DNA from: an archaeon | GTDB lineage: Archaea; Nanobdellota; Nanobdellia; Woesearchaeales; GW2011-AR9 | Length of the DNA: 64,000 bases | Reading direction: 5' to 3' | NCBI GenBank assembly: GCA_023259115.1 | Contig: JAHFQW010000003.1 | Span: 46,346 to 110,345 of the forward strand | Part shown: in pieces, positions 3,532-58,238 of the stretch | How positions within the stretch are numbered: the first letter of the stretch is position 1 | Layout: every line of letters starts with the position of its first letter | The notes under the pieces: generated by a model | The model's input: the letters and a program-made list of their open reading frames with translations, nothing else | Told to the model about the DNA's origin: nothing | The model's database searches: none | Position numbers and translations under genes: made by a program

Positions 3532-4887
3532 ATGTCTAAACGCTACCTTCTGGATACAAATGTGTTTATGCGTGATCCGAGAGCGTTGTTTGCATTTCAG
3601 GAACATGATGTGTATGTATCATCTGGGGTACTGCAAGAGTTGGATAAGTTTAAGAAGGGTAACGAAGAACAAAATATCAATGCACGTCTAGCGAATAGGC
3701 AGTTAGCGGGTCTTATGCGGGAGTTAGGACAATATTCTAAAGAGGAGAGAAGACAAAAAATAAATGAAGGGATTCCTCTAGGGGAGGGATTAGGGAGATT
3801 ATACTTTTTGGCGTTAGAAGAGAATGTAATGTTTAGTTATGCAGATCCAGAATTATTATATCAACTTAAAAAAGATGAACAATTGAAGAAAGAATCAGAA
3901 TTGATTTTAGTGAGTAATGATACAAGTCTGCGGCTGCAGGCATTTGCGCAGGGATATTTTGCAGAAGAGTATCGCCATGATCGGGATATTAAAGATTTAC
4001 ATGAATTACTGGATATGCCTGAGAGAATTACGCTTGAGGCAGATGATGTCATTCAATTACGACAGGAGAGAAGTTTATCTATCCCTAAAGGAATTTTGCA
4101 ATTTAACAAACCCCTATTTAATAATCAATATCTTTATGTTGAAGGGGATACGTTGCTGCTGCGATATAAAGAAGCACATTTGGAACATACTTTTGTACAG
4201 CTTCAAGATAGGCGAGGGGTTGATTCAATCTTTGGAATTTATCCAAAAAATAAAGAACAATCATACTTATCTGATCTTTGTTTGAATGATGAGATTAGAA
4301 TTGGAACGGTGTTAGGAAAAGCAGGAACAGGAAAAACGATATTAACATTGGCAGCGGCACTGCAAAAAACAATTAGAGAGAACAAATTTGATAGAATTGT
4401 GATTATTCGTCCAGTGATGGAAATTGGGGAAAAATTGGGTTTTTTACCTGGTGACATTGATGAGAAAATTGATCCGTATAAAGGTCCAATTAAAGATGCG
4501 GCAGAAGTGATTTTTTCGGGAATGCGTAAAAAAATTGGAGGAGTGGAAGAGGCGGGTTTAGAATATCTTATTGGACAAGGTAAAATTTTATTTGCACCAT
4601 TAAATTATATGCGAGGACGAAATCTGATAAAAACGTATATTATTGTGGATGAGGCGCAGAATCTCACGCCCAGTCAGGCGAAAACGCTTGCAACAAGAAC
4701 GGGACAAGATTCCAAAATTATTTTTCAAGGTGATCCGTATCAAATTGATGCGCTGCATTTGGATGAGACAAATAATGGTCTTGTGACGTTAACTAAGAAA
4801 TTGCTAGGAGAGAAGATTTTTTCTACAGTGGTGTTGAAGTCAACAGAACGCAGTGATGTGGCGGAATTGGTTGCGAGAGTTATGTGA
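3532..4887 (+). CDS. PIN-domain plus PhoH-like ATPase (YlaK/PhoL family)
   Basis: N-terminal PIN (LLDTNVFMRDPRAL); C-terminal PhoH P-loop GKAGTGKTILTLAAAL and IVDEAQNLTP. Confidence 0.8.
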   Translation: MSKRYLLDTNVFMRDPRALFAFQEHDVYVSSGVLQELDKFKKGNEEQNINARLANRQLAGLMRELGQYSKEERRQKINEGIPLGEGLGRLYFLALEENVMFSYADPELLYQLKKDEQLKKESELILVSNDTSLRLQAFAQGYFAEEYRHDRDIKDLHELLDMPERITLEADDVIQLRQERSLSIPKGILQFNKPLFNNQYLYVEGDTLLLRYKEAHLEHTFVQLQDRRGVDSIFGIYPKNKEQSYLSDLCLNDEIRIGTVLGKAGTGKTILTLAAALQKTIRENKFDRIVIIRPVMEIGEKLGFLPGDIDEKIDPYKGPIKDAAEVIFSGMRKKIGGVEEAGLEYLIGQGKILFAPLNYMRGRNLIKTYIIVDEAQNLTPSQAKTLATRTGQDSKIIFQGDPYQIDALHLDETNNGLVTLTKKLLGEKIFSTVVLKSTERSDVAELVARVM

Positions 4888-5783: not shown

Positions 5784-5879
5784 ATTGTGCGGGGGGGCTT
5801 TTTGGTATATAAAGGTGATGAAGGAGAAGGGAAATTACATAAAGAGTGTTTTCCGGCTTTAGAAGAGTTTGAATAATTA

Positions 5880-6215
5880 ATCTTTTTCAATGAAAATGAA
5901 AAATAATATTTTCAAGAGTAAAAATCACATTGAGTGTTCAAATAGACTATTGATTTTTACTTGTCAAACTCCTCTAAGAAGTACTTTGAATATAGATAAC
6001 TGTGTAGAAGATATAATATTTGACACAGTTATCTAATACAAGAAAATAAATAAACGATTTATTTTCCACAAGACAAAACAGCGATTTTGTCTGTGCACAA
6101 ATAGGATAGTTTTCCTATTTTGTGTGTACAGAAATACGATAGTTTTCGTATTTCTTGTAAATAAACTGTGGTTTATTATATTGATGAATAGAGGGGTTAT
6201 TCAAAGTTCCTTTTA
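5880..6215. repeat. Mosaic intergenic hairpin-repeat locus A
   Basis: Ordered modules: conserved 11-bp-stem hairpin AGTAAAAATCA...TGATTTTTACT (5917-5961); palindrome AAGTACTTTGAATAT; AGATAACTGTGT/ACACAGTTATCT hairpin (5992-6033); four tandem short hairpins (6042-6066, 6071-6092, 6099-6120, 6130-6155; two share the loop TAGTTT); TTTATTATATTGATGAATAGAGGGGTTATTCAAAGT tail abutting the stop of the 6217 gene. Confidence 0.6.
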
Positions 6216-7961: not shown

Positions 7962-8010
7962 AAGTATAGAGGGGTTTGATTAACCATATAAGACTTGCCA
8001 AAGTCCTCTA
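7962..8010. repeat. GAGGGGTTTGATTAACC...CAAAGTCCTCTATA repeat element
   Basis: Same 5' module as the elements at 11591 and 28340; imperfect inverted arms TAGAGGGGTTTG / CAAAGTCCTCTA. Confidence 0.5.
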
Positions 8011-8122
8011 TAAATGAAATTTTGAGATTTTTGCGGGTATTGATGTTTATCTTTTGAAGTGGTGAATAAATCACCAAGTCTGGTTTAATAATCTTTATAA
8101 ATCTGTAAAGAGTAATAGGAGA

Positions 8123-11584: not shown

Positions 11585-11695
11585 ATTTTTATAGAGGGGT
11601 TTGATTAACCATCTAAAATTCCTCAAACCCATTTAAGAAGTACTTTGAATGTTAATGAATATAGGGGTTATTCAAAGTCTTCTATAATCTTATTA
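11585..11695. repeat. Intergenic repeat element (GAGGGGTTTGATTAACC + ACTTTGAAT/ATTCAAAGT palindrome)
   Basis: ATAGAGGGGTTTGATTAACCATCTAAAATTCCTCAAACCC...AAGTACTTTGAATGTTAATGAATATAGGGGTTATTCAAAGT lies downstream of the 3' end of the minus-strand gene at 11712. Confidence 0.5.
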
Positions 11696-16808: not shown

Positions 16809-17187
16809 TAAGTTAGGGCAAACTCTTCCATAAGTAATGAAAGTATTTTTTATAATTCTCTGCGAGTGATGTATGAGTTATGACAAAGGCAATAGGTTTT
16901 TCTAACCAGAGTACGTTGGCTATGGTGTCGCCATAGATGTAGATTACATTGGGTCCAGCGAGTATTTATCTTGAACGTGGGGAAGATAGGCAAAAGAGAT
17001 TATACCAATGGGATACGTTTCGATCTGTTTCTTGTTGTGCAGAAGAGGCGCTAGAAATTACACGGGCAGAATTTCAAGAATTAATTACACCCCTCAAAAA
17101 TGATTTGCAATTGTTTTATGATAAAGAAAAATGGCGAGCGTGTGAACCTAAAAAGTAAGGTGATAATGGTCTACTTGTAATAGATAA

Positions 17188-18270
17188 TCATTTTTTCAAA
17201 AACTCTTTGACGTTCTTAAAATCGACTTTGATGATTTGAGAAAATGAAAGGGAATAGGTGGTCATTTTATTTTCTTAATTTCTTTTTTTGGAGGAAGAAA
17301 ATTTTCTCCGGTCACAACATTTTTTCCGGTCTTTTCTTCAAGTTCTATTCGTGCATTCTTAGCAATTTTGCCGCCTTTCTTGCTAGCAATAGTATTTTCT
17401 GGCATGCCTTGGGCATTCATTGTTTGTGCAATTTGCCTCGTTGATAATTCTGCAAGTGCGGTAAAAACCAGTTCTGCTTCATTCATATGATCACGAAGAT
17501 TCTGATTTTTTAGTCCTTTCAAGTCTTTATGTTCTTTAACATTAACTCCTGACCATTCTTCGTGGATGATATTAGTTAATATGGCATATTCTTCATCTTT
17601 TGTAACATCATGATCTTTCCAATAGTCTGTGAGCTTATTTCTAATCTCTTGACTCATCATTCGCTGCTGGATCCACTTCTCACTGCGTCCAAGCTTTTGC
17701 CAATTGTCTCTAGCTCTATCTAAAGATAATGATGGATCTGCTAGCTCTTTCATACGTTCATATCCCACCTTAGCAAGCCATAATTTTATAGGCTCAGCTT
17801 TGGGAGAAGGAATAGACTGAATTAGACGCAATAGAATATCTGGACTAGCCACATCTGTCTCACGCATCTTCCCATCTTGTGCGGGTAATTTCAACTGGTC
17901 ACAATTTGTGACCACTTCACTCCCTTCATTTTTTAAACGATTTTTAAGAGTAGTCCAGTAAGATTTTGCTTTATCATAATCCGTTTGTTGTGTTAAAACT
18001 GCCACAATATCAATTACGGAAAAATACCATGTTTCTGTCTTCTCATCGTAGTATCTTCTTATCTTATAATTTTCAAATATTGTTAAGTTATTTACCATCT
18101 TTACAACCTCAAAAACATAATAATTTCATGTCCAGTTATTATTGATGCTTAAAAAAGAGGTGAACATTAAAAAGATTACCTCCTTGAAAATCATAATTAT
18201 TAAAATTTTATCCCCGCTATATTCATTTTTTCAAAAACTCTTTGACGTTCTTAAAATCGACTTTGATGAA
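17188..18270. mobile_element. Putative integrated or degenerate mobile element flanked by 47-bp perfect direct repeats
   Basis: TCATTTTTTCAAAAACTCTTTGACGTTCTTAAAATCGACTTTGATGA occurs at 17188-17234 and again at 18224-18270. The second copy is the 3' coding end (…KVDFKNVKEFLKK*) of rnhC; the first is a partial duplicate of it. The only complete gene between them is dinD-like. Confidence 0.45.
17262..18098 (-). CDS. DinD-like / Bro-N (KilA-N) domain protein
   Basis: N-terminal FENYKIRRYYDEKTETWYFSVIDIVAVLT is Bro-N-like. C-terminal half aligns with E. coli DinD (KGLKNQNLRDHMNEAELVFTALAEL vs KGLKKNQKILDHMGSTELAANLFRATQ). Confidence 0.65.
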   Translation of the reverse strand: MVNNLTIFENYKIRRYYDEKTETWYFSVIDIVAVLTQQTDYDKAKSYWTTLKNRLKNEGSEVVTNCDQLKLPAQDGKMRETDVASPDILLRLIQSIPSPKAEPIKLWLAKVGYERMKELADPSLSLDRARDNWQKLGRSEKWIQQRMMSQEIRNKLTDYWKDHDVTKDEEYAILTNIIHEEWSGVNVKEHKDLKGLKNQNLRDHMNEAELVFTALAELSTRQIAQTMNAQGMPENTIASKKGGKIAKNARIELEEKTGKNVVTGENFLPPKKEIKKIK

Positions 18271-19038
18271 TTGTGCGAATGAGTGGTTACGTTTTTTGAG
18301 TTCTTCTACTGCGGGTAGAACGTGTGTGCTGCCTTTGGGAAGTGTAAATCCGGCTAATGAACTGAGGTAGTTGAGTTGATGGAGTGCGGCGGCTCTGGCG
18401 AGGATGGATGCGGCGGCGACTTCGACATATTTGGATTCGGCTTTTTCTTCACAGTTGTTTCCTGCTTGGCAGCCGGGGTATTTATCTACAATGTGTTTCC
18501 CGGGTTTGAGATATCTGGCGCAGTCATCATGGAGTTTATTTAGGAGATGGGTGATGTTGTGATGTATTAGGTAGTTGTTATATTCTTCGGGGAGAAGGCT
18601 GATAATTTCACAGGGGACGAGGTGTTTAATTTTTTCGGCGAGAGGGAGAATTTCGGTATCGCTGAGCGTTTTGCTATCGGCAACGCCGAGTTCTTTGAGT
18701 TTTTTTCTGGTGTCATTATCGGCTTTTACCGCAGCTACAACGATGCCACCAAACGTGTCACCTTTCAATGATTCATCACTGCCAATGATGATGCCGGTTT
18801 CTTGGGTGAAGTGTTGGGAAGATTGTTTTTGACCAATATGATGTTTTTCTAGTTCGGGAAGAAGGGATTTGATATGTTGAGGAGAGCCTTGGAGGAGAAG
18901 TTTTCCGGAGGTGTAGAGAATTAATGTGACACCTAATTTTGTTAAACGCAGTTGTTCGTATAAAGAGGTGGGTTCTTGTTGGATGCAGCCTTTGAGTTTT
19001 TGCAAGTCCTCTTTTTGAACGTGATCGAAGACAGTCAT
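18223..19038 (-). CDS. rnhC: Ribonuclease HIII (bacterial type)
   Basis: N-terminal domain plus catalytic IIGSDESLKGDTFGGIVVAAV, LGVADSKTL, VAAASILARAAAL and GFTLPKG align closely with B. subtilis RNase HIII. Confidence 0.8.
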   Translation of the reverse strand: MTVFDHVQKEDLQKLKGCIQQEPTSLYEQLRLTKLGVTLILYTSGKLLLQGSPQHIKSLLPELEKHHIGQKQSSQHFTQETGIIIGSDESLKGDTFGGIVVAAVKADNDTRKKLKELGVADSKTLSDTEILPLAEKIKHLVPCEIISLLPEEYNNYLIHHNITHLLNKLHDDCARYLKPGKHIVDKYPGCQAGNNCEEKAESKYVEVAAASILARAAALHQLNYLSSLAGFTLPKGSTHVLPAVEELKKRNHSFAQFIKVDFKNVKEFLKK

Positions 19039-19168
19039 GGAGTCAGGGAAGATGCACGAGAATAAAAAGGTATGGGGAGATTACTGAGAAGGTTATGCTG
19101 ATGAGGTTAAGCTTATGATGATATGCTTATGAGGTTAAGCTGAAGAGGATGATGCTGATTACTTTAGT

Positions 19169-20304: not shown

Positions 20305-20420
20305 TTCTTATAGATAATTCTGCTGATTAGATTATATTTGGCAGAATTATCTAATACACGAAAATAAACACCGATTTATTTTCGGTACAGAAATGTGATG
20401 GTTCTCACATTTCTTGTAAG
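20305..20420. repeat. Mosaic hairpin-repeat locus B, directly upstream of orc1/cdc6
   Basis: TAGATAATTCTGC / GCAGAATTATCTA 13-bp IR around an AT-rich 17-nt spacer (20311-20353); CGAAAATAAA / TTTATTTTCG hairpin (20359-20384); AGAAATGTGA / TCACATTTCT hairpin (20389-20414). Homologous to modules in locus A. Confidence 0.55.
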
Positions 20421-28335: not shown

Positions 28336-28690
28336 AGATATAGAGGGTTTTGATTAACCCTATAATACTTGTCAAAACCCTCTAAGAATTACTTTGAATA
28401 TTGATAAATAGATGGGTTATTCAAAGTCCTCTATAGTAGAATTCCATGATATTCGAACACAAGAAAATGAATAATAATCATTTTCTGTGCAGAAATAAAG
28501 TAGTTTCTTTATTCAACGAAAATGGAAAATAACATTTTTAAGAGTAAAAATCCATTGATTTTATTGAATGATTCGCAGATTTGCGATTGGGATTTTTACT
28601 TCTTGTATTTGTGGAATTCTACTAATAAGTAAATATCCCTAATTATGTTCGAGAGCTAGGGATATTTACTATAAGAGAGGGAAAGAATAT
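28336..28690. repeat. Mosaic intergenic hairpin-repeat locus C
   Basis: AGAGGGTTTTGA / TCAAAACCCTCT hairpin; ATTACTTTGAATA...GGGTTATTCAAAGT palindrome; TAGTAGAATTCCA and its inverse TGGAATTCTACTA; hairpins AGAAAATGA / TCATTTTCT and AGAAATAAAG-TAGTTT-CTTTATT; conserved module AGTAAAAATCC...GGATTTTTACT (28544-28600); AGTAAATATCCCTA / TAGGGATATTTACT (28627-28670). Confidence 0.6.
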
Positions 28691-29959: not shown

Positions 29960-30005
29960 GTAATCTTTTGTTTATTATATTGATGAATATAAATGTTATT
30001 CAAAG
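29960..30005. repeat. TTTATTATATTGATGAATA...GTTATTCAAAGT 3'-end element
   Basis: Near-identical to the tail at 6165-6208; abuts the stop (TAA read on the minus strand at 30006-30008) of the minus-strand gene. Confidence 0.45.
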
Positions 30006-31514
30006 TTAATTATAATGGTTTTTAATTTTACTTTGATAGGGATATTTTTCGTTAGTGTAGAGAAGAATGTCAGGGGTGGCTAACTGGGGAAATTTTTGAT
30101 AACTAGCACGATAGCCTTGATTTACCTCTTGCAAAGTTTTCATAATTAATTGGGTGTATTTTTGTTTGAGCAAATGAGTGGGGATGATATTAGGTTTTAA
30201 TTGAATTTCAATCTGCAAGCAACGATTGTGATTTGTATCAAAGATACTTTGAAATTTAAAGTTGCCTGTAGTTTGTGTTTCGATTTGAGGGTTGCGATAG
30301 ATGCATTCTTGGATGTTTTCAGGATAGATGAGGAAAGCGTTGAAGTTGACAGGGCCATTTTTTCTGCCAACAATATAAAGAAAAGGAAGAGGAAGGTTAA
30401 GTTGGCGGTGAATTTTGTGTTTAGCAAGAATTTTTTGCATGGAAGCGTGGGAGATGGTGCCTCCTTCATCTTCGAGGTTATATTTCATGACGGGCTGTGC
30501 GGCTTCAGGTAGGATTGTGGTGAAGACCAGTTCTTTTTTTTCGTTGGCGTAGACAAATAAATTGAGAGGGTATTGAAAGAGCATGGGAGTTTCTTGTACA
30601 TCTCCGAAGAGTTCTTGACGTAAAGTGTGGTTTTTATCAGCTAGACGACGAATGAAAACAGTGTTATCATTTTCCATACCACCTAGAATACCGATGTCAG
30701 AGGCGCCAAAACCGGAGCGGACTTTGCCTTTAATTTGTTTTTGAAGATATGTACGCCAAGATTCGGGAAAATCTTCGCCACCACCAATAAAGTGAAGGGT
30801 ATATTTTTTAAGTGGGAATTTACGGGTTATGGCGTCGTCAACGAAGTTTTTGATGAATGGAGGGTAGCCGGTAATGATGATTTGTTCGTAGCTGCTGCCA
30901 ATATCAAGAATGGTTTGAAATATTTCGTCTTTATCTGGCCCAACATTAATGACGGGACAATGCCAGGAAGCTAATTCATTGAAATTTATACCAGTAACCC
31001 AGCTGCCAAGAATAAAGCCATTGATGATTAATGTTTTTTTTTTATCCGTTTTGAAATTTTCATCGAGGGCAATACTCAGAGCGGTTTTACCAAAGAGGTC
31101 TTCATTGTGGGAACGAACCCAATAACATTGTTTGCCAGAGTGACCGGAACTTTTGACAATCATACTAATATTGTGATAGTCACCGTTAATACACATGTCA
31201 CACATATCATGGGCTTTAAAGATATAATTTTTTTTGTTGGTTTCGGGAGCAAGGGTGAGAAAGTCATGTAGTGTTTTAATTTGTTGAGGGTTGCAGTGAT
31301 GTTGGGTGAGAAATTTTTTGTATTGAGGGATACGCTGGGCATTGAGATGAAAAGTGTAGAGGAGATATTTTTCTTGAAGAAGCTCAATGGTATCGGGAGA
31401 GGTGTTAAAAAATGTTTCTTTAAATTTAGGATAATTTTTGGTCTGCTGATTCATCAAGGGATGGAGCAGAGACATGGAGACGGTTTTGATGGTGGAATTA
31501 AGAAGAAAAGACAT
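30006..31514 (-). CDS. Adenylate-forming enzyme (PaaK / F390-synthetase-like)
   Basis: SSGHSGKQ approximates the AMP-binding motif (S/T)SG(S/T)TGxPK; overall PaaK-like architecture at about 500 aa. Weak. Confidence 0.4.
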   Translation of the reverse strand: MSFLLNSTIKTVSMSLLHPLMNQQTKNYPKFKETFFNTSPDTIELLQEKYLLYTFHLNAQRIPQYKKFLTQHHCNPQQIKTLHDFLTLAPETNKKNYIFKAHDMCDMCINGDYHNISMIVKSSGHSGKQCYWVRSHNEDLFGKTALSIALDENFKTDKKKTLIINGFILGSWVTGINFNELASWHCPVINVGPDKDEIFQTILDIGSSYEQIIITGYPPFIKNFVDDAITRKFPLKKYTLHFIGGGEDFPESWRTYLQKQIKGKVRSGFGASDIGILGGMENDNTVFIRRLADKNHTLRQELFGDVQETPMLFQYPLNLFVYANEKKELVFTTILPEAAQPVMKYNLEDEGGTISHASMQKILAKHKIHRQLNLPLPFLYIVGRKNGPVNFNAFLIYPENIQECIYRNPQIETQTTGNFKFQSIFDTNHNRCLQIEIQLKPNIIPTHLLKQKYTQLIMKTLQEVNQGYRASYQKFPQLATPDILLYTNEKYPYQSKIKNHYN

Positions 31515-35162: not shown

Positions 35163-35264
35163 CTGTGTATGAAATAAATTGAGAGGAGAGTATAAAAAGA
35201 TTATGAGAATTCAATAGATAGGTTTGAGAGGAAAAATATAGAATGAAGAAAAATACTTTATTTT

Positions 35265-35295
35265 GGTACAGAAAACAATTTTTTTTCTTGTATGA
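35265..35295. repeat. TACAGAAA...TTTCTTGTA hairpin module (short-stem copy)
   Basis: GGTACAGAAAACAATTTTTTTCTTGTATG shares its flanks with the hairpins at 6127-6159 and 20386-20417. Confidence 0.4.
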
Positions 35296-36555: not shown

Positions 36556-36642
36556 AGAATGGTTTGGGGGAGGTTGATTATAAATTTTATGATATTGCAG
36601 ATTTTTTGTATTGATAAGTAGAGGGGTTATTCAAGCACTTAT

Positions 36643-41682: not shown

Positions 41683-41772
41683 GTTGAATTCTATTTTTCT
41701 ATTTGAGTATATTAATATTTAACGAATTGTGAGGATTATTCAAAGTTCTCTATAAATATTTATTCTAAATAT

Positions 41773-45625: not shown

Positions 45626-46630
45626 TTATTTTGCGGATGAAGAAGTTGCTGCGGTGTAGCGTTGCGTTAAAAGATGTTGCATGTAGGCTTTATCGGTGAG
45701 ACCGGTTTGTTTGTTGAGGATGCAATCGCTGTGTGGATGATTGAAATAAGGTTCAGTGTAGCGAGATTGGGTGAAATCGCACGTGGGATTGATGACACGA
45801 TGGATGGTTGCGGGTAAATTAGTTTTAATCTCTAATTTTTGGCCAATATTGATGACGGTGCTGTTTTTAATGTGAGGGATGTCTTGCCATTCACCATCAA
45901 TGAGCACTTGCAGACCTTTATTTGGTTCGTATAATGATGTTTTAAAGTTGCTATCTTTGTGTGAGCCTGCACGAATGGCTTTGGGCTGAGCGCTAGGTTG
46001 TGCAAGATCGTTGAGCATTTCTGTTGCAAGAGATTCAGAGATAGGAGAGAGGGGAGTATGGCAATAGTGAGTTAATAAATTGAGAAGGTATTGTTTGGAG
46101 GGGTAAAAATTAAGACGCATGACACTATTGCCTCCGGTGGCATCTTCTTTGAGCTCATCTTGGGGGAAGCCAAGGTATTGGGCGATGGCTTGCAGAAGAA
46201 GATGAGATTTTTCTTCTTGCAGATGATACGCGGCAAGGAGAGTTGACTTAAATTGAGGAAGAATATTTGAGGAAGGCCAGATGTTGGCATCATATCGGGA
46301 GTCGTTTTCTCGACCAAATTCGAAGTATTCTTTGAGATCAGGATATTTTTCGCCTAGAGCGGTCTCGCCACCAAGGGGTATGAAGCCACGTTCACCACGA
46401 GTTTGGGGGAGGAATAGATGCATTTTTTGTTCAAATGAGATGGTTTCAAAGAAGAGATGTTCTTGCTTGCGAACTTGAGACATGATGTTCTCCAAGCCTA
46501 CATTTTTACAGACAACAAAACCGGTTTGTTTTAATGATTTGCCAATGCCATCAATGAAACAATTTTTTATCTGTGATGAGGAAGAGAGGTAATCTTGAAA
46601 GTTGAGAATACGTACTTCTTGTGCATCCAT
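45626..46630 (-). CDS. 2-oxoglutarate / Fe(II)-dependent oxygenase superfamily protein
   Basis: HKD...H facial-triad spacing (RAGSHKDSNF ... ATIHRV) and VMRLNFYP region typical of 2OG-FeII_Oxy. Confidence 0.55.
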   Translation of the reverse strand: MDAQEVRILNFQDYLSSSSQIKNCFIDGIGKSLKQTGFVVCKNVGLENIMSQVRKQEHLFFETISFEQKMHLFLPQTRGERGFIPLGGETALGEKYPDLKEYFEFGRENDSRYDANIWPSSNILPQFKSTLLAAYHLQEEKSHLLLQAIAQYLGFPQDELKEDATGGNSVMRLNFYPSKQYLLNLLTHYCHTPLSPISESLATEMLNDLAQPSAQPKAIRAGSHKDSNFKTSLYEPNKGLQVLIDGEWQDIPHIKNSTVINIGQKLEIKTNLPATIHRVINPTCDFTQSRYTEPYFNHPHSDCILNKQTGLTDKAYMQHLLTQRYTAATSSSAK

Positions 46631-46719: not shown

Positions 46720-46898
46720 GAGTTTAAGTATGTATTAAGTTAGGTAACAGAAAGTGAGGGCAGGCCGTCTGCTGTGGCGAAAATGATATGTTTTTCGATG
46801 ATTTTCGCTTCTTAACCTTATCTTACGAATGGTATAGCACAGCAGACATCTTGGCCAAGCCCGCACTTTTAATGTGAACTTAATACATACGAGTTTAA
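46720..46898. mobile_element. MITE (family 2, copy a) with 14-bp TIRs and 8-bp target-site duplication
   Basis: TIR GTATGTATTAAGTT (46728-46741) / AACTTAATACATAC (46877-46890). TSD GAGTTTAA at 46720-46727 and 46891-46898. Internal long imperfect hairpin GTGAGGGCAGGCCGTCTGCTGTG...CACAGCAGACATCTTGGCCAAGCCCGCAC. Confidence 0.6.
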
Positions 46899-46913
46899 GA
46901 AAGGTATATAAAC

Positions 46914-47420
46914 GTGAAAAAAATGATTGTGACCATGACGTGGTTATCAATGTTCGGGGGTTGGGGAAGTGGAAAAAATTCTACGAATTCTACGAAGAAG
47001 AGTGATTCGGAGGCGCAATTACGGGGGTTTATTTTAGATATTCGTACATATATCAACAAGAGATTGTATAATCCTGATTCTGAGCTGGTGCCGCTGCAGT
47101 TTTTGGATCGATCAACACGAGAAAATGCGGCAAATTCAACGGCAACGGTACAGCATTTTTTTGAGAGAACAAAAGAACAGTTGCAGACCTATAAAAGTGT
47201 TATTAGTGCAATAGCTGTACCAGAACAGGACCGCTTCTCACGAAATGCGAAAATAAAAACGGTAGAGGTATTGGAGGGGATGATGGGGCATTGTCAATTT
47301 TTTTATGATCGAGCAGAGTCGTATAGGACATATCAACAAGATGGAACGGTGAAGAGATTATTGAATCATACTATTAAAAATTATCTGGCAACGCTGGAGA
47401 TGTTTTCTGAGGTTAATTAA
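46914..47420 (+). CDS. Hypothetical protein (168 aa) bracketed by two MITEs
   Basis: ORF starts 15 bp after MITE 2a; MITE 2b begins 1 bp after its stop. No recognisable domain. Confidence 0.35.
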   Translation: MKKMIVTMTWLSMFGGWGSGKNSTNSTKKSDSEAQLRGFILDIRTYINKRLYNPDSELVPLQFLDRSTRENAANSTATVQHFFERTKEQLQTYKSVISAIAVPEQDRFSRNAKIKTVEVLEGMMGHCQFFYDRAESYRTYQQDGTVKRLLNHTIKNYLATLEMFSEVN

Positions 47421-47421
47421 T

Positions 47422-47664
47422 TTTTTAGAGTATGTATTGAAGTCTGGTTACAAAAAGTGCTGGCAGGCCGTCTGGTACTTGAGCAAGCAAGAGCGTTGCG
47501 AGCTCTTGCAAGTCACAGCAAAAATTAGCCCTCGGATCCGCGGTTCCTTGCAGTGTCTCTCGATTGTTTTTGCGTTTTAATCTTGTCTGACGAGTAGCGT
47601 AGTGCGACAGACATCTTGGCCAAGCCAGCACTTTTTCAGGTAAACTTAATACATACTTTTTAGA
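47422..47664. mobile_element. MITE (family 2, copy b) with TIRs and 8-bp target-site duplication
   Basis: TIR GTATGTATTGAAGT (47430-) / AACTTAATACATAC (47643-47656). TSD TTTTTAGA at 47422-47429 and 47657-47664. Internal hairpin GTGCTGGCAGGCCGTCTG...CAGACATCTTGGCCAAGCCAGCAC carries a compensatory change relative to copy a. Confidence 0.6.
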
Positions 47665-47701
47665 GAAAAGTATATAAAAAGCAAGTGGTTAGTGATTAAA
47701 G

Positions 47702-48136
47702 ATGGTGTTAAAAGAGATGTTTTCATTTGGGCAAAAGAAGGTGATTGAGTTAGATCCATACCAAGATTTGAAAGAGCGGGTGCAAGATGCGAATTCTTAT
47801 GTTATGAACAAGATTGGGGATCCGAAGGCGGAAATGTTTCAATTGCAGTTAGGGATTGTGCCAAAAGAGAGGATACAACGTTTTTTTTATGATGTGGGAA
47901 GCAATTTGGAGAGGCATCGAGAGAGTGTGAAAGCGGAATTGCTTAGGCATAATCCTATGACGTTTCCCATTGATAAGAGAGAAGTGATTAAAGCACTGGG
48001 TGATTTGCGCGAGATGTGCAAACATTTGGAGGAGAATCCTCAGCATTTTCGGGTGCGGACAACGGAGTTGCAGCATAAAGCACAAAATTATATGAAAGCG
48101 GCGGATGTGTACCGCAACTTATCTACTCGAAGATAG
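47702..48136 (+). CDS. Hypothetical protein (144 aa), possibly HEPN-like
   Basis: Alpha-helical. Weak similarity to the C-terminus of the preceding 168-aa protein. Lies upstream of an NTase gene, the usual HEPN/MNT arrangement. No firm motif. Confidence 0.3.
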   Translation: MVLKEMFSFGQKKVIELDPYQDLKERVQDANSYVMNKIGDPKAEMFQLQLGIVPKERIQRFFYDVGSNLERHRESVKAELLRHNPMTFPIDKREVIKALGDLREMCKHLEENPQHFRVRTTELQHKAQNYMKAADVYRNLSTRR

Positions 48137-53454: not shown

Positions 53455-53500
53455 ATAGATAATTCTGTGAGTGATATTACATTTTTGTACAGAATTGTCC
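53455..53500. repeat. ATAGATAATTCTGT...ACAGAATTGTCC hairpin module (third copy)
   Basis: Same family as 5992-6033 and 20311-20353: 12-13-bp inverted arms around an AT-rich 19-nt spacer. Confidence 0.45.
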
Positions 53501-53534
53501 ATAATAATAAGAAATAAAAAATGAAAATAAAAAC

Positions 53535-53889: not shown

Positions 53890-54035
53890 TAGTTATTGTG
53901 CTGTTTCTATAGTAGAATCCCATGATTTTTTGAGCATTTGTGGAATTCTACTAAGAAGTACTTTGAATATTGAGGATTATATGGGTTATTCAAAGTTCTC
54001 TATAGTAGAATCCCATGATTTTCAAACATATTCTA
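53890..54035. repeat. Mosaic hairpin-repeat locus D
   Basis: TCTATAGTAGAATCCCATGATTTT appears twice (53921 and 54013), bracketing TGTGGAATTCTACTA (its inverse) and the AAGTACTTTGAATATTGAGGATTATATGGGTTATTCAAAGT palindrome. Confidence 0.55.
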
Positions 54036-54684: not shown

Positions 54685-55491
54685 ATGTGGGTTTACAATC
54701 TTGATCCGGTGCTTGTGCACTTAGGGCCAGTTGAAATACGATGGTATGGGTTAGTGTATGTGGCGGGGTTCTTTTTTGCAGTCTGGTGGTTGCATTATAT
54801 GGCGAAAAGAGGGCAAGTTGAGTTGAGCTCGGATGATATTTGGGATATGTTGTTTTATTTGATGATAGGGGTATTGATCGGTTCGCGGTTGTTTGAGGTG
54901 TTTTGGGAGCCGAGTTATTATTTGAGCAATCCGCTGCGATTTTTGAAGATTTGGGAAGGAGGGATGAGTTTTCATGGAGGATTTGTGGGGATTATTACGG
55001 CAACAGGGTGGTATTGTCGGAAGAAGAAGATGAATTTTTGGAAGATTGCGGATGCGATGAGTTTTCCAACTCTGTTGGCGTTGGCATTGGGACGGGTGGC
55101 AAATTTTGTTAATGGTGAATTAGTAGGACGAGTGTGGGGTGGTTCTTGGTGTGTGGTGTTTCCAGATTATGATATGCAATGTCGACATCCATCCATTTTA
55201 TATGCGGCGGGGCAGAGATTAGTTGTTGCGGTGTGGCTGGCATGGTTGACGGTGCGTTGGGAGTTTAGGGCAGGATTTATTTTTTGGAATTTTGTTTTGC
55301 TGGAAGGAATGGGTAGATTTATTATTGATTTTTGGCGAGAGGATACGTTGTATTATGGGTTTACGATGGGGCAGATATTTAGTGCGATGATGGTTGTTGT
55401 GGCGGTGTGGATGTTGGTTTTGAGGCATCGAGGGGATGTGAAGCGGTTGTTTTTGAATAGGAAAGAGCTTGAGAGATTAGAAGAAGCCTGA
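54685..55491 (+). CDS. lgt: Prolipoprotein diacylglyceryl transferase (bacterial Lgt)
   Basis: LGPVEIRWYGLVYVAGFFFAVWW (cf. IGPVALHWYGLMYLVGF); WEGGMSFHGG (identical to the E. coli WDGGMSFHGG core); GRVANFVNGELVGR; HPSILYAA (cf. HPSQLYE). Confidence 0.8.
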   Translation: MWVYNLDPVLVHLGPVEIRWYGLVYVAGFFFAVWWLHYMAKRGQVELSSDDIWDMLFYLMIGVLIGSRLFEVFWEPSYYLSNPLRFLKIWEGGMSFHGGFVGIITATGWYCRKKKMNFWKIADAMSFPTLLALALGRVANFVNGELVGRVWGGSWCVVFPDYDMQCRHPSILYAAGQRLVVAVWLAWLTVRWEFRAGFIFWNFVLLEGMGRFIIDFWREDTLYYGFTMGQIFSAMMVVVAVWMLVLRHRGDVKRLFLNRKELERLEEA

Positions 55492-55579: not shown

Positions 55580-57397
55580 TTGAGCATGGTTGATTTGGCA
55601 GGATTGATTGCATCTTACAACGGATTGGATTATGTGTATAGCGCAAAACCGGGAAAGTATACTTTTGTAGCGCCGAGTTCTTTTACAGAAAATGGTCTGA
55701 GGCAGAGAGGGGGGAGAGTTGTAGTTATAGAACAGGGAGAGAATTGTATTACTTCTCTGGTTATGGATAATGGGCATGGTTCAGCGATTATTACACCAAA
55801 TAATAAGGGGCAGACGTATATGGTATTGAGGTATGTACCTTATATTGTGAATATTGTTGAAAAAAAAGGAAAAAATGCGTCTTTACAAGAATGTAAAATA
55901 ATTCCCACAACGCTCTATGATGTGGAATTAGTCAAAGTGATAAGTGATGTAGGGGTTTTTGAAGAGCGGTGTGAAAAAGAGTTTGAACAGTGTACCTTTG
56001 CCGCGATGCGAAGTGGTTTTTTATCACAGTTATTATTACCTAAAACGAAGACAGCAACACTTTCAAGAAAAGTGGATCTGAATTCATTAGATTTGTTGAT
56101 GCAAGAAGCTCGGCGATATAAACTCTTAGATCATGAGCTGGAATTTATTGTTGGCCAACGGCGAGATTATGTGAAAAGAATGATGGACACAGCGCTGGCA
56201 AATTTAGTTTTTTTGCAAAAAGATACACCCCATTTTACGCAATTATGGGCAGATGTGAGAAGAGTATTAAGAGAAATACCTCTTCCTACGACACCAGATG
56301 AAATGAGGGAAGTTGAGAAGTATTACAAACCAGAAGTGAGACGCTATTTTGATCTAAAAGGAGCTACTTTTTTTACTGATGTGAAAGAGCATCGCTACAT
56401 TTTGAATTTATTTCTAGCATCAGAAGGCAGAGATATGAAGAGATTTGGTTCATTACAGTGGCAAGAAGAGGTGTATGGAGAGATAATACCATCGGTGCAA
56501 CACTATGTGGATAGCCAAAAAGCGATGTTTGAAGGGGGGGGAAAAACTCTCCCTGCAATACTCTTAGAGCAAACAAGATTATTAGATGTTTATCATCGCG
56601 CTAAAACACAATATCAAGAAATGATTAATCTTTTTGTAGCGCATAATATTCGTTTAGTGTTTAACCGAGCATTGCCGTTCATTAAGAAAGGAAAAGATAC
56701 GACGGAAGCAATGGCCAATGGCATGGTTGGCTTACGCAAGGCGGCGATGAAATATAAATGGGAGCGAGGGTATAAATTTTCAACCTATGCGGCGTGGTGG
56801 ATCAGACAAAATATTGATCGAGAAGATATGGATACAGGGGAGACGATTCGCAAGCCGGTGCATCTGCGTACGTTCTTAGATAAGTTGCATTATGTACAAG
56901 GAAGATTTTGGCAACAGCAATGCCGATATCCTACTTTGGAGGAATTAGCAGAAATAGTTGATGCGCCTGTACGCAGGATCAAACGGGCGTTAGAGAGTCC
57001 GGGTGAATGCCGATCACTCTATGATAAAGTGGGTGATCTAGATGATCGAGATGGAGCATCAGTTATTGATTTTATTGATGGAAGTGATGCAGAGCAGTTG
57101 AGAGGATTTGTACATGTGCCTTTAGATGTACATACGGCGGCTGAGGGAAGTAATATGGGTTTAAAAGTGCACCAGATGTTAATATTATTAACCCCTAGAG
57201 AGGAATCTGTGATACGCTATCGTTTCGGGATTGGTGTAGAAGAGAAGACACTTGAAGAGGTGGGACAGATGATGGGGCTTACGCGGGAGCGGATTAGACA
57301 AATTGAGATGATCGTAATTAAAAAATTAGGTAGGCGATTGGAGAGTAGAGGTATTACGGCGGATTATTTGGATAGAGAGAGGAATAAAGAGACTTGA
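55580..57397 (+). CDS. Sigma-70-family (primary-like) sigma factor with an approximately 350-aa N-terminal extension of unknown nature
   Basis: Region 2: NIRLVFNRALPFIKKGKDTTEAMANGMVGLRKAAMKYKWERGYKFSTYAAWWIRQNI (RGYKFSTYA[T/A]WWIRQ is the group 1/2 sigma hallmark). Region 3 start: IRKPVHL. Region 4.2: LLTPREESVIRYRFGIGVEEKTLEEVGQMMGLTRERIRQIEMIVIKKL. Confidence 0.75.
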   Translation: MSMVDLAGLIASYNGLDYVYSAKPGKYTFVAPSSFTENGLRQRGGRVVVIEQGENCITSLVMDNGHGSAIITPNNKGQTYMVLRYVPYIVNIVEKKGKNASLQECKIIPTTLYDVELVKVISDVGVFEERCEKEFEQCTFAAMRSGFLSQLLLPKTKTATLSRKVDLNSLDLLMQEARRYKLLDHELEFIVGQRRDYVKRMMDTALANLVFLQKDTPHFTQLWADVRRVLREIPLPTTPDEMREVEKYYKPEVRRYFDLKGATFFTDVKEHRYILNLFLASEGRDMKRFGSLQWQEEVYGEIIPSVQHYVDSQKAMFEGGGKTLPAILLEQTRLLDVYHRAKTQYQEMINLFVAHNIRLVFNRALPFIKKGKDTTEAMANGMVGLRKAAMKYKWERGYKFSTYAAWWIRQNIDREDMDTGETIRKPVHLRTFLDKLHYVQGRFWQQQCRYPTLEELAEIVDAPVRRIKRALESPGECRSLYDKVGDLDDRDGASVIDFIDGSDAEQLRGFVHVPLDVHTAAEGSNMGLKVHQMLILLTPREESVIRYRFGIGVEEKTLEEVGQMMGLTRERIRQIEMIVIKKLGRRLESRGITADYLDRERNKET

Positions 57398-57938: not shown

Positions 57939-58097
57939 ATGATGTGAGAAGAAGAATTTTTCTTTTATTTATTTTTTCTAGTTCAGTTTACTTTTAGACT
58001 AAATGGAGAGGTTTAATTTTAAAAAAAAAAGATAAAAAAAATAAGATTTATTCAATGTTCTTTATGATTTCGCTATAAAGAGGTTATTCAAAGTCTT

Positions 58098-58238
58098 TTA
58101 TAATCTTTTTTTCATTTTGGCTAAGAGGATATAATCTTCTTTTGTGCCACTGCCGCCTTTGCATTTGAGCTCGAGGGCAGCGACTTCGGCTTTGACATCT
58201 TTTAATCGTTTTTCAACGTCTTTTTTGCTCATGGTCAT
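58098..58238 (-). CDS. Small basic coiled protein (46 aa; absent from the ORF track)
   Basis: Hand translation: MTMSKKDVEKRLKDVKAEVAALELKCKGGSGTKEDYILLAKMKKRL, followed by the GTTATTCAAAGT-type 3' element. Function unknown. Confidence 0.3.
   Translation of the reverse strand: MTMSKKDVEKRLKDVKAEVAALELKCKGGSGTKEDYILLAKMKKRL

Follow-up and report, generated by a model that had tools for sequence, protein, structure and literature searches.

We have analysed here a set of short hairpin repeats that lie between the genes of an archaeal contig, within a window (the whole stretch of 64,000 nucleotides examined, positions 46,346 to 110,345 of JAHFQW010000003.1) whose main locus is a composite at 5858-6215. 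The repeats are probably several families of tiny non-coding mobile DNA elements that form near-perfect hairpins in a DPANN (Woesearchaeota-like) clade, of the kind represented by MITEs (miniature inverted-repeat transposable elements), palindrome-associated transposable elements (PATEs) and REPINs (hairpin-forming doublets of repetitive extragenic palindromes, REPs), rather than RNA genes. Two families are central to this reading. Family 1 is an 88-89 nt unit of two hairpins, A and C, with ~17-nt imperfect inverted ends, and family 2, or E, is a 64-nt double hairpin with a dinucleotide between its hairpins that is complementary to the dinucleotides on both outer sides.

Repeat finding on the window recovers the module families, and together with reading of the sequence it places all five module types of the original prediction, which had been drawn from the letters of the window, with at least one module at each of its 12 loci. 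The quoted stem pairs are also where they were said to be, with AGAAATACGA/TCGTATTTCT within 6129-6157, AAATAGGA/TCCTATTT within 6096-6124, AGAAATGTGA/TCACATTTCT within 20357-20418, and AGTAAAAATCA/TGATTTTTACT at 5917-5961 having a counterpart of the form ..ATCC/GGAT.. within 28515-28605. The main locus is real, although it begins at 5858 and not at 5880, the left arm of hairpin A (5862-5872) having been missed. Similarly, the modules do recur, but their different orders are mostly the result of nesting and tandem arrangement (B in the A loop, D and E in the C loop, E and B in the loop of F) and not of a shuffled functional vocabulary; the mosaic arose as elements inserted next to and within one another, in many cases in a hairpin loop. 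Hairpin A at the main locus is formed by TAGAAGAGTTTGA (5860-5872) pairing with TCAAACTCCTCTA (5964-5976), and it is the same hairpin as that at 28341-28384 with its loop now filled by module B. Hairpin C (ACTTTGAATA/TATTCAAAGT), which is compact at 11641, 28390 and 53959, here contains module D, four E-type hairpins and one small hairpin, inserted precisely between GAATA and TTGAT of its loop. The hairpin at 6129-6157 matches the pattern CAGAAAT-N4-TAGTTT-N4-ATTTCTTG exactly, and the E covariance model finds 6067-6126 on the + strand with 55 bits and 6094-6159 with 48.6 bits, the latter as a - strand match.

Folded as DNA, 5856-6212 forms two multibranch domains at -66 kcal/mol, compared with -27.4 +/- 3.3 for shuffled sequences (z = -11.8); for an RNA fold of the opposite strand, z = -10. 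Both the AT-richness of the region and the abundance of A and T in the stems would be expected if the matches were chance or low-complexity sequence, but the probability of this is practically nil. The 12-mer GTTATTCAAAGT, allowing one mismatch, occurs seven times and always on the + strand, where 0.49 occurrences are expected and none of 100 shuffles reaches seven; this number, the fold and the complementarity of E stems described below refute a chance origin.

Family 1 unites the first two modules of the original prediction (i and ii) with a TAGAGGG..CCCTCTA hairpin in one two-hairpin unit. At ~14 of 17 positions the left end GAGAGGTTTGAATAACC agrees with the right end GGTTATTCAAAGTCCTC when the latter is reverse-complemented, and 16 of the 20 full copies are flanked by an exact 4-nt direct repeat. 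Six different 4-mers are used (nine TATA, three TATC, and one each of TTTT, TATT, TACA and TAAA), seven of the 16 repeats are non-palindromic, and several different repeats occur within one genome. These flanking repeats, which vary between copies, are target-site duplications (TSDs), and the unit therefore transposes. Inverted ends and variable 4-nt TSDs make family 1 a MITE by structure, and it behaves as one with a 4-bp AT-rich TSD that is usually TATA, so that the contrast drawn in the original prediction, in which the hairpins were more than passively decaying MITEs, does not hold. Tandem A-A-A-C arrays and solo A-like hairpins are also seen. An exact-pattern scan with the hairpin-C pattern, using one genome per species, finds 31 stretches, 30 of them in ~10 archaeal (DPANN) metagenome-assembled genomes (MAGs) mostly labelled Woesearchaeota or Nanoarchaeia. 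Seventeen of the archaeal stretches come from one Rifle MAG, and the lone Lachnospiraceae contig is probably a chance match. Neither family 1 nor E was found in viral contigs.

The stems of family 1 vary while remaining paired. In 22 units, with hairpin A lying outside the search pattern, 95% of cells (one stem pair in one copy) are paired, and 5 of the 12 hairpin-A pairs have changed on both sides across MAGs, examples being AU in 12 and GC in 10 units, GC in 17 and AU in 5, and GC in 14 and UA in 7. These changes in the hairpin-A stem are not mirrored in the right terminal repeat, and it is thus the local pairing of the hairpin that is kept, not the similarity between the ends of the element.

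E corresponds to the fourth module of the original prediction (iv), and its 64-nt double hairpin, in which CAAGAAA pairs with TTTCTTG, is seen from the sequence context of matches to the pattern CAGAAAT-NNNN-TAGTTT-NNNN-ATTTCTTG, with four stem positions left free on each side. Scanning of metagenomes with this pattern gives at least 120 stretches from many groundwater samples, some of the contigs encoding aIF2-alpha homologues, and the statistics for E rest on the matches listed. All four free positions are Watson-Crick complementary in 102 of 128 listed matches (80%, as against 0.4% by chance), with 22 different 4-mers represented. Among 57 distinct 64-nt doublets, 98.4% of cells are paired and 13 of the 24 pairs have changed on both sides; one pair is CG in 20 copies, GC in 17, AU in 11 and UA in 9 with no mispairs at all. 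No shuffle reaches the observed covariation score, and slid controls fall to 42-51% paired. In the first hairpin (H1), 18 of 95 doublets carry TAGTTT inverted, as an AAACTA loop, and the remainder carry CAACGA-type loops. Compensatory stem change, which had been proposed from a few paralogous pairs together with a covariance-model search to count it, is therefore far stronger than the window alone shows: the stems of both E and the A-C unit covary, with an excess over shuffles for E.

The layout of E is X-hairpin-Y-hairpin-Z, in which the 2-nt Y is complementary to both flanking dinucleotides, X before H1 and Z after the second hairpin (H2). X:Y and Y:Z each pair in 55-57 of the 57 copies, the pairs being of CG, AU, UA and GC types, and the X/Y/Z combinations include CG/CG/CG, AA/TT/AA, TG/CA/TG, AG/CT/AG, TA/TA/TA and CT/AG/CT. 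As Y is complementary to both X and Z, X equals Z, and although plain duplication accounts for this identity, it does not account for Y tracking the two of them. We consider it possible, if doubtful, that the compensated stems have a mutational origin, through intrastrand template switching or mismatch repair in quasi-palindromes, and that the elements are conventional cut-and-paste MITEs in which palindromy plays no part. The pairs are near-exclusively Watson-Crick with very few single-sided intermediates, the 22 different perfect 4-mers are reached more easily by copying from arm to arm than by paired point mutations, and family 1 has classical terminal inverted repeats and TSDs. However, Y lies outside both arms and still tracks both flanking dinucleotides, and a mutational origin leaves the conserved asymmetric loops, the single-base bulges and the two-hairpin layout conserved in both families unexplained. 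The original proposal of selection on the hairpin itself thus stands in so far as the folded hairpin is what is kept, but selection is not the only route to this pattern, since palindrome-templated repair would give the same one.

A second question is whether selection on transcripts maintains the hairpins as structured RNAs, such as small RNAs, 3'-untranslated-region stabilisers or terminators. The strong covariation alongside conserved loops such as TAGTTT and CAACGA would fit this, as would the placing of most window copies just 3' of a gene end with none in the nine divergent spacers of the window, and imperfect H2 stems have G:T more often than A:C, by 13 to 2. Nonetheless we regard it as very unlikely. 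Elsewhere copies do occupy divergent spacers, and orientation is random relative to neighbouring genes: the gene to the right of A-C is on the + strand in 15 cases and the - strand in 14, with orientation unrelated to neighbours, and E is downstream of a co-oriented gene in 39 cases and of an opposed gene in 36 (114 of 119 copies being intergenic). Structured RNA would be expected to show far more G:U than the 8 of 1368 cells (0.6%) seen in E, and the A-C unit has 3 in 493. The TSDs, the nesting, the copy inside a tRNA gene and the absence of copies from orthologous spacers of relatives, the last two described below, are likewise at odds with an RNA function, and there is no Rfam family match, the Rfam 15 scan of the window giving no match at the gathering score and a sole match at E <= 1 to an unrelated snoRNA model (4272-4408). 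The original prediction had left the choice between RNA structure and a DNA cruciform; the near absence of G:U, the random orientation and the lack of an Rfam match disfavour RNA, and a DNA hairpin is favoured.

Comparison with relatives argues for mobility of the repeats. Other loci compared here are denoted by L and a number. Relatives whose radical-SAM protein is 73-78% identical to that of the window share its gene order, and it had been asked whether they carry the same modules at the same positions; the modules are absent from the orthologous intergenic regions of these close relatives. The SerRS-Cdc6 spacer is 252 nt in the window with D and E but 78 nt in L155 without them, the promoter being conserved, and L157 has other palindromic families at the corresponding spacer. 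In 58 kb of L155, L157 and L159 the E covariance model has no match, as against four doublets in the window. A filled E site can also be compared with an empty one: L102 has GGATTTTCTAAAA[E]AATCAAAT, L102 and L114 read ..TTCTAAAA[E]AATCAAAT.., and L157, which is empty, reads ..TTCTAAAATCAAAT.., the gain being the element plus 2 nt (in one pair of sites, with the 2 nt indistinguishable from an element-borne end). Complementary stems of at least 8 bp flank 12.7% of E copies and 2.4% of controls, and E is also found in the loops of other E hairpins and other palindromes.

One of 170 doublet matches tested lies inside a tRNA-Leu(TAA) gene (L112, 9707-9766), between positions 7 and 8. Removal of E plus CG restores a perfect acceptor stem and a clean ARAGORN call, and the gene has a 22-nt anticodon-loop intron too; either the gene is dead or E is removed from the transcript. 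We considered E as an archaeal intron and rejected this, as it is seen in one of 170 doublets and inspection by eye reveals no bulge-helix-bulge motif (no 3-nt bulge/4-bp helix giving correct exons). E also lies in or beside Rfam RT-11 and RT-16 RNAs upstream of reverse-transcriptase genes (L080 267-460, L067 4046-4198, L138 411-635 and L154 1091-1231). A retroelement origin for E was rejected because three of the four loci are orthologous, and for the same reason E in these loci is interpreted as having inserted into a different gene for a structured RNA. A further motif, TAGCCG.ACTTG..TGTCCAGTGCGGGAGTGGCTA, recurs in L065, L085, L094, L110, L112, L124 and L136 and often hosts an E doublet between ACTTG and TGTCC. 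The C-right motif of family 1 is present at 8 of 120 E loci among the matches listed, which is not clearly above a rough chance estimate of ~3.

These observations also bear on the idea that the repeats are DNA hairpins or cruciforms which spread once and were then kept by the host for a chromosomal role, as sites for nucleoid, topoisomerase or replication proteins of the sort proposed for bacterial interspersed mosaic elements (BIMEs). They are intergenic, conserved across species and, in the window, co-oriented with its extreme strand skew, which would fit such a role. But genomes with 73-78% identity in a neighbouring protein have wholly different copy sets, copy positions are not conserved, and insertions are found in tRNA and non-coding RNA (ncRNA) genes, and we consider domestication very unlikely.

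For E, a way of moving can be proposed. IS200/IS605 insertion sequences (ISs) have a short guide at the foot of a hairpin that pairs with cleavage and target sequences, and from the X-Y-Z arrangement we infer that E may use a related mechanism. E would move via a folded single-stranded DNA form, an E strand closed into a circle together with either X or Z would form a perfect dumbbell, and base pairing with the internal dinucleotide Y would pick the insertion site or set the cutting of the ends. Stems would stay paired because only folding strands are propagated or because the arms are copied from each other in the process, in either of which cases the constraint would be on DNA and not on an RNA product. 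The enzyme would probably be supplied in trans. The full proposal, that E is a new kind of minimal single-stranded DNA mobile element in archaea, a 64-nt dumbbell whose 2-nt internal guide chooses the insertion dinucleotide and whose enzyme (HUH-type or other, possibly one per genome or from a host or partner cell) acts in trans, is tentative, and we rate it as rather unlikely. If it is true, the target of E would be naturally reprogrammable, E would be the first REPIN/RAYT-like (RAYT, REP-associated tyrosine transposase) or PATE-like system in DPANN archaea, and the system might be linked through long-lived single-stranded DNA to the extreme strand asymmetry of the clade.

Several findings weigh against the reading of the repeats as mobile elements and against the mechanism suggested for E. 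No transposase was found in the 50 main window open reading frames (ORFs) scanned with Pfam and NCBIfam, of ~60 of gene size, and an all-against-all comparison of 1667 ORFs in ~0.9 Mb of loci gave no recurrent transposase-like cluster, the largest clusters containing Pfam matches to Lhr helicase, GT2, reverse transcriptase, Bro-N, methyltransferase and XerC-like integrase. A map of all E-type hairpins shows none split around an ORF. The sole Y1 transposase match, in a phmmer search of the six-frame ORFs of all loci with an IS200 TnpA query, is that of an IS200-type element in L123 whose end hairpins are unrelated to E. Family 1 has true TSDs, which are not expected of IS200/IS605-type movement, and the two families therefore probably use different enzymes. 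The X/Y/Z geometry differs from that of IS608, where both guides are 5' of their hairpins, and the excess of G:T over A:C in imperfect E stems, 13 to 2 in H2 but 13 to 9 in H1, gives no more than a faint indication of which strand is folded. In the window, seven of seven C-right copies are on the + strand and four of four E doublets score higher on this G-rich strand, but orientation relative to GC skew is mixed in other contigs with moderate skew, where the strand bias of the window does not hold.

Further searches for an autonomous partner gave similar results. A fuzzy search for distant pairs of family-1 ends detected no autonomous element, ~8 kb beyond the window contained no transposase, and there is no TnpB-sized recurrent ORF cluster among the loci, where TnpB was not searched with a profile. 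Pairs of E hairpins spaced 2-3 kb apart in L105 and L126 were considered as an autonomous element and rejected, as they enclose only small or housekeeping-like ORFs. A XerA-like integrase is near E in five loci, which is probably shared synteny. The IS200-type element of L123 (10437-11130) encodes a Y1 transposase (HVH ... YIINQAEHH), has end hairpins CCCCGCCCTAAAGGACGGGG and CGACCTAAAGGTCGGGG, and is inserted ~10 nt from an E doublet within another palindromic repeat.

As putative mobile elements, the repeats share some properties with several well-described systems and differ from them in others. Like the hairpin-forming MITEs of bacteria (Correia/NEMIS, ERIC, RUP, BOX and Bacillus cereus bcr1) and the MITEs of archaea (Sulfolobus SM1-4 and haloarchaeal elements), they are short, non-coding, intergenic and multi-copy, the whole element folds, and family 1 has inverted ends and short AT-rich TSDs; BOX elements are modular, as are these repeats, and compensated stems have been reported for bcr1. 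They differ from those MITEs in having smaller units with hairpins of 29-45 nt, in being tandem double hairpins with local pairing conserved rather than an end-to-end repeat, and in that one family spans many species-level MAGs and many sites. We know of no parent IS for them.

The likeness to BIME/REP mosaics that had been noted is apt as an analogy. As in REP, BIME and REPIN sequences, palindromes of 20-40 nt are present as intergenic doublets and clusters with structure conserved above sequence, and about one fifth of E doublets, in which a single hairpin type is present twice in inverted orientation (loops AAACTA and TAGTTT side by side), may be comparable to REPINs. REP palindromes are defined by a GT[AG]G tetranucleotide at the 5' foot (PMC6006769), which is absent here, the feet being CA(A/T)G in E and GAG(A/G)G or TAC in family 1. 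Also unlike the REP/REPIN-RAYT systems, no RAYT gene was found among the six-frame ORFs of the loci and family 1 makes TSDs; all taxa listed with class-2 TnpA(Y1) or RAYT-type proteins are bacterial (PMC6006769).

IS200/IS605 elements and PATEs, the latter being non-autonomous IS200/IS605 derivatives named in haloarchaea (PMC3119063), are bounded by hairpins at both ends, and a short guide inside the element, at the foot of the hairpin, pairs with the boundaries; in E, Y is complementary to X and Z and may be the counterpart of this guide. Strand-oriented copies, a probable dependence of E on a folded single strand and a plausible circular junction for E are further similarities with IS200/IS605. 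Unlike in IS200/IS605, the putative guide of E is 2 nt and not 4 and would serve both ends by itself, nothing lies between the hairpins of the 64-nt element, and no element with tnpA or tnpB was found to match, since the hairpins of the one IS200-type element encountered are different; family 1 has 4-nt TSDs whereas IS200/IS605 elements make none. Integron attC sites and the CTX phage attP site, finally, are similar in that a folded single strand would be the recombination substrate, structure counts for more than sequence and, in those systems, orientation to replication matters. In contrast to attC, the repeats lack R''/R' core sites (GTTRRRY is not matched by GTTATTC), a cassette array and an adjacent integrase, and the genes next to them, on both strands, have housekeeping functions.

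DPANN archaea have tiny genomes that are thought to be poor in repetitive DNA, and to our knowledge no REP-type system is known in archaea. The original suggestion of novelty in this domain has to be qualified for MITE-like elements, since a MITE census already counts a Woesearchaeal genome among the most MITE-dense archaea, although these elements are not described there (PMC11602168). Among the papers searched, none pairs Woesearchaeota with 'miniature inverted-repeat'. The families recur in many lineages from groundwater, and this breadth among DPANN archaea, together with the dinucleotide of E that resembles a guide, is what interests us most. E is a natural experiment with dozens of stem variants and several X/Y/Z combinations, in which a folded strand and a short guide, and not the primary sequence, would define the element, and the mechanism of small palindromic repeats thereby becomes testable in archaea. 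From a practical standpoint, the elements break assemblies, insert into tRNA and ncRNA genes and could serve as strain markers.

The window contains 7-8 copies of C and four E doublets (with one more E doublet just past its right edge), in units of 40-89 nt, and the hairpin repeats make up ~2% of its length. Their positions are listed in the Table. In the composite at 28436-28622, the insert in the loop of F spans 28447-28611 (E plus B), and the E covariance model matches 28458-28520 with 50 bits. A near-identical strain (L001) differs by 5 single-nucleotide polymorphisms in 15 kb, two of the five being in the E hairpin array (window 6070 and 6128).

Table. Positions of hairpin modules, arms and flanking duplications in the window.
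Position	Strand	Feature	Remarks
5858..5861	+	TTTA, left copy of 4-nt TSD	direct repeat of 6212-6215; same place as the TSDs of 16/20 full copies elsewhere
5862..6211	+	composite family-1 (A-C) element, 350 nt	hairpin A arms 5862-5872/5964-5976; hairpin C arms 5985-5994/6199-6208; both loops hold other elements
5873..5963	+	module B in loop of hairpin A; hairpins 5891-5914 and 5917-5961	compare uninterrupted A loops 28354-28371 and 7980-7997; second copy 28515-28605
5993..6035	+	hairpin of module D (TAGATAACTGTG..CACAGTTATCTA), opening the hairpin-C loop insert	other copies 20311-20353, 53456-53501
6039..6157	+	array of four E-type hairpins: 6039-6066, 6069-6093, 6096-6124, 6129-6157	covariance-model matches
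6160..6177	+	small hairpin AATAAAC tgtg GTTTATT, end of hairpin-C loop insert	
6212..6215	+	TTTA, right copy of TSD	
7965..8012	+	family-1 element with internal deletion, left end GAGGGGTTTGATTAACC, right end CAAAGTCCTC	between TATA and TATA
11590..11686	+	full family-1 A-C element, 89 nt	TATA/TATA flanks
20311..20418	+	module D hairpin (20311-20353), then E double hairpin (20357-20418)	top covariance-model match: 76.4 bits, E = 5e-17
28339..28435	+	full family-1 A-C element	TATA/TATA flanks
28436..28622	+	module F hairpin, arms 28436-28446/28612-28622; loop holds E doublet 28460-28514 and module B 28515-28605	compare uninterrupted F 53912-53951
28628..28670	+	module G, perfect 14-bp hairpin AGTAAATATCCCTA..TAGGGATATTTACT	
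29970..30006	+	truncated copy: hairpin-C loop and right arm	
35267..35292	+	weak E-like hairpin TACAGAAAA..TTTTCTTGTA	covariance-model match 35235-35292, 27 bits, E = 3e-4
36609..36635	+	truncated hairpin-C remnant	adjoins stop codon of malic-enzyme gene
41729..41754	+	solo right end of family 1 (GTGAGGATTATTCAAAGTTCTC + TATA)	
53456..53501	+	solo module D hairpin	
53912..54022	+	53912-51, hairpin F; 53956-54004, hairpin C and TATA; 54005-22, another left arm of F	F replaces hairpin A
58049..58102	+	two partial family-1 right ends	

The gene content of the window is archaeal (family-B DNA polymerase, Orc1/Cdc6, TrmB, aIF2-alpha and ribosomal protein L44e), the radical-SAM protein encoded there has homologues with the source labels Woesearchaeota or Nanoarchaeota, and the window sequence is also present in groundwater-type assemblies of ENA and Logan. 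A tRNA scan of the window found no tRNA. Bacterial-type genes are present on the archaeal contig as well, encoding a 605-aa protein with Sigma70 region 2 and 4 matches, a prolipoprotein diacylglyceryl transferase (LGT) and a RelA/SpoT protein; the coordinates given for these genes are 55580-57397 and 54685-55491 in the window and 1536-3419 in L161, with RelA/SpoT just left of the window.

The strand asymmetry is extreme, with 16720 G and 8914 C on the + strand of window 1-64000. GC skew is ~+0.30 in each 2-kb bin whichever way the genes run, + strand genes have ~35-42% G and 4% C at their third codon positions with the reverse in - strand genes, and the skew does not switch at the Orc1/Cdc6 gene of the window. 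It is common to relatives L155-L159, which have 73-78% identical proteins (-0.21 to -0.29, in reversed orientation), while other Woesearchaeota loci are without the extreme skew.

Three other repeats are found in the window. A repeat of ~175 nt at 46737-46912 and 47440-47678, the copies being 77-83% identical, lies 5' of two small paralogous ORFs (46914-47420 and 47702-48136) and may be a conserved leader or ncRNA; its motif CTTACGAATGG.ATAGC...ATCTTGGCC also adjoins E in L048 and L061. A 14-nt tandem repeat of TATGCTGATGAGGT-like units (19094-19149) is directly downstream of the Orc1/Cdc6 gene, and a 64-nt direct repeat, 92% identical between 17184-17247 and 18219-18282, is located at the 3' ends of neighbouring minus-strand genes (DinD-like and RNase HIII).

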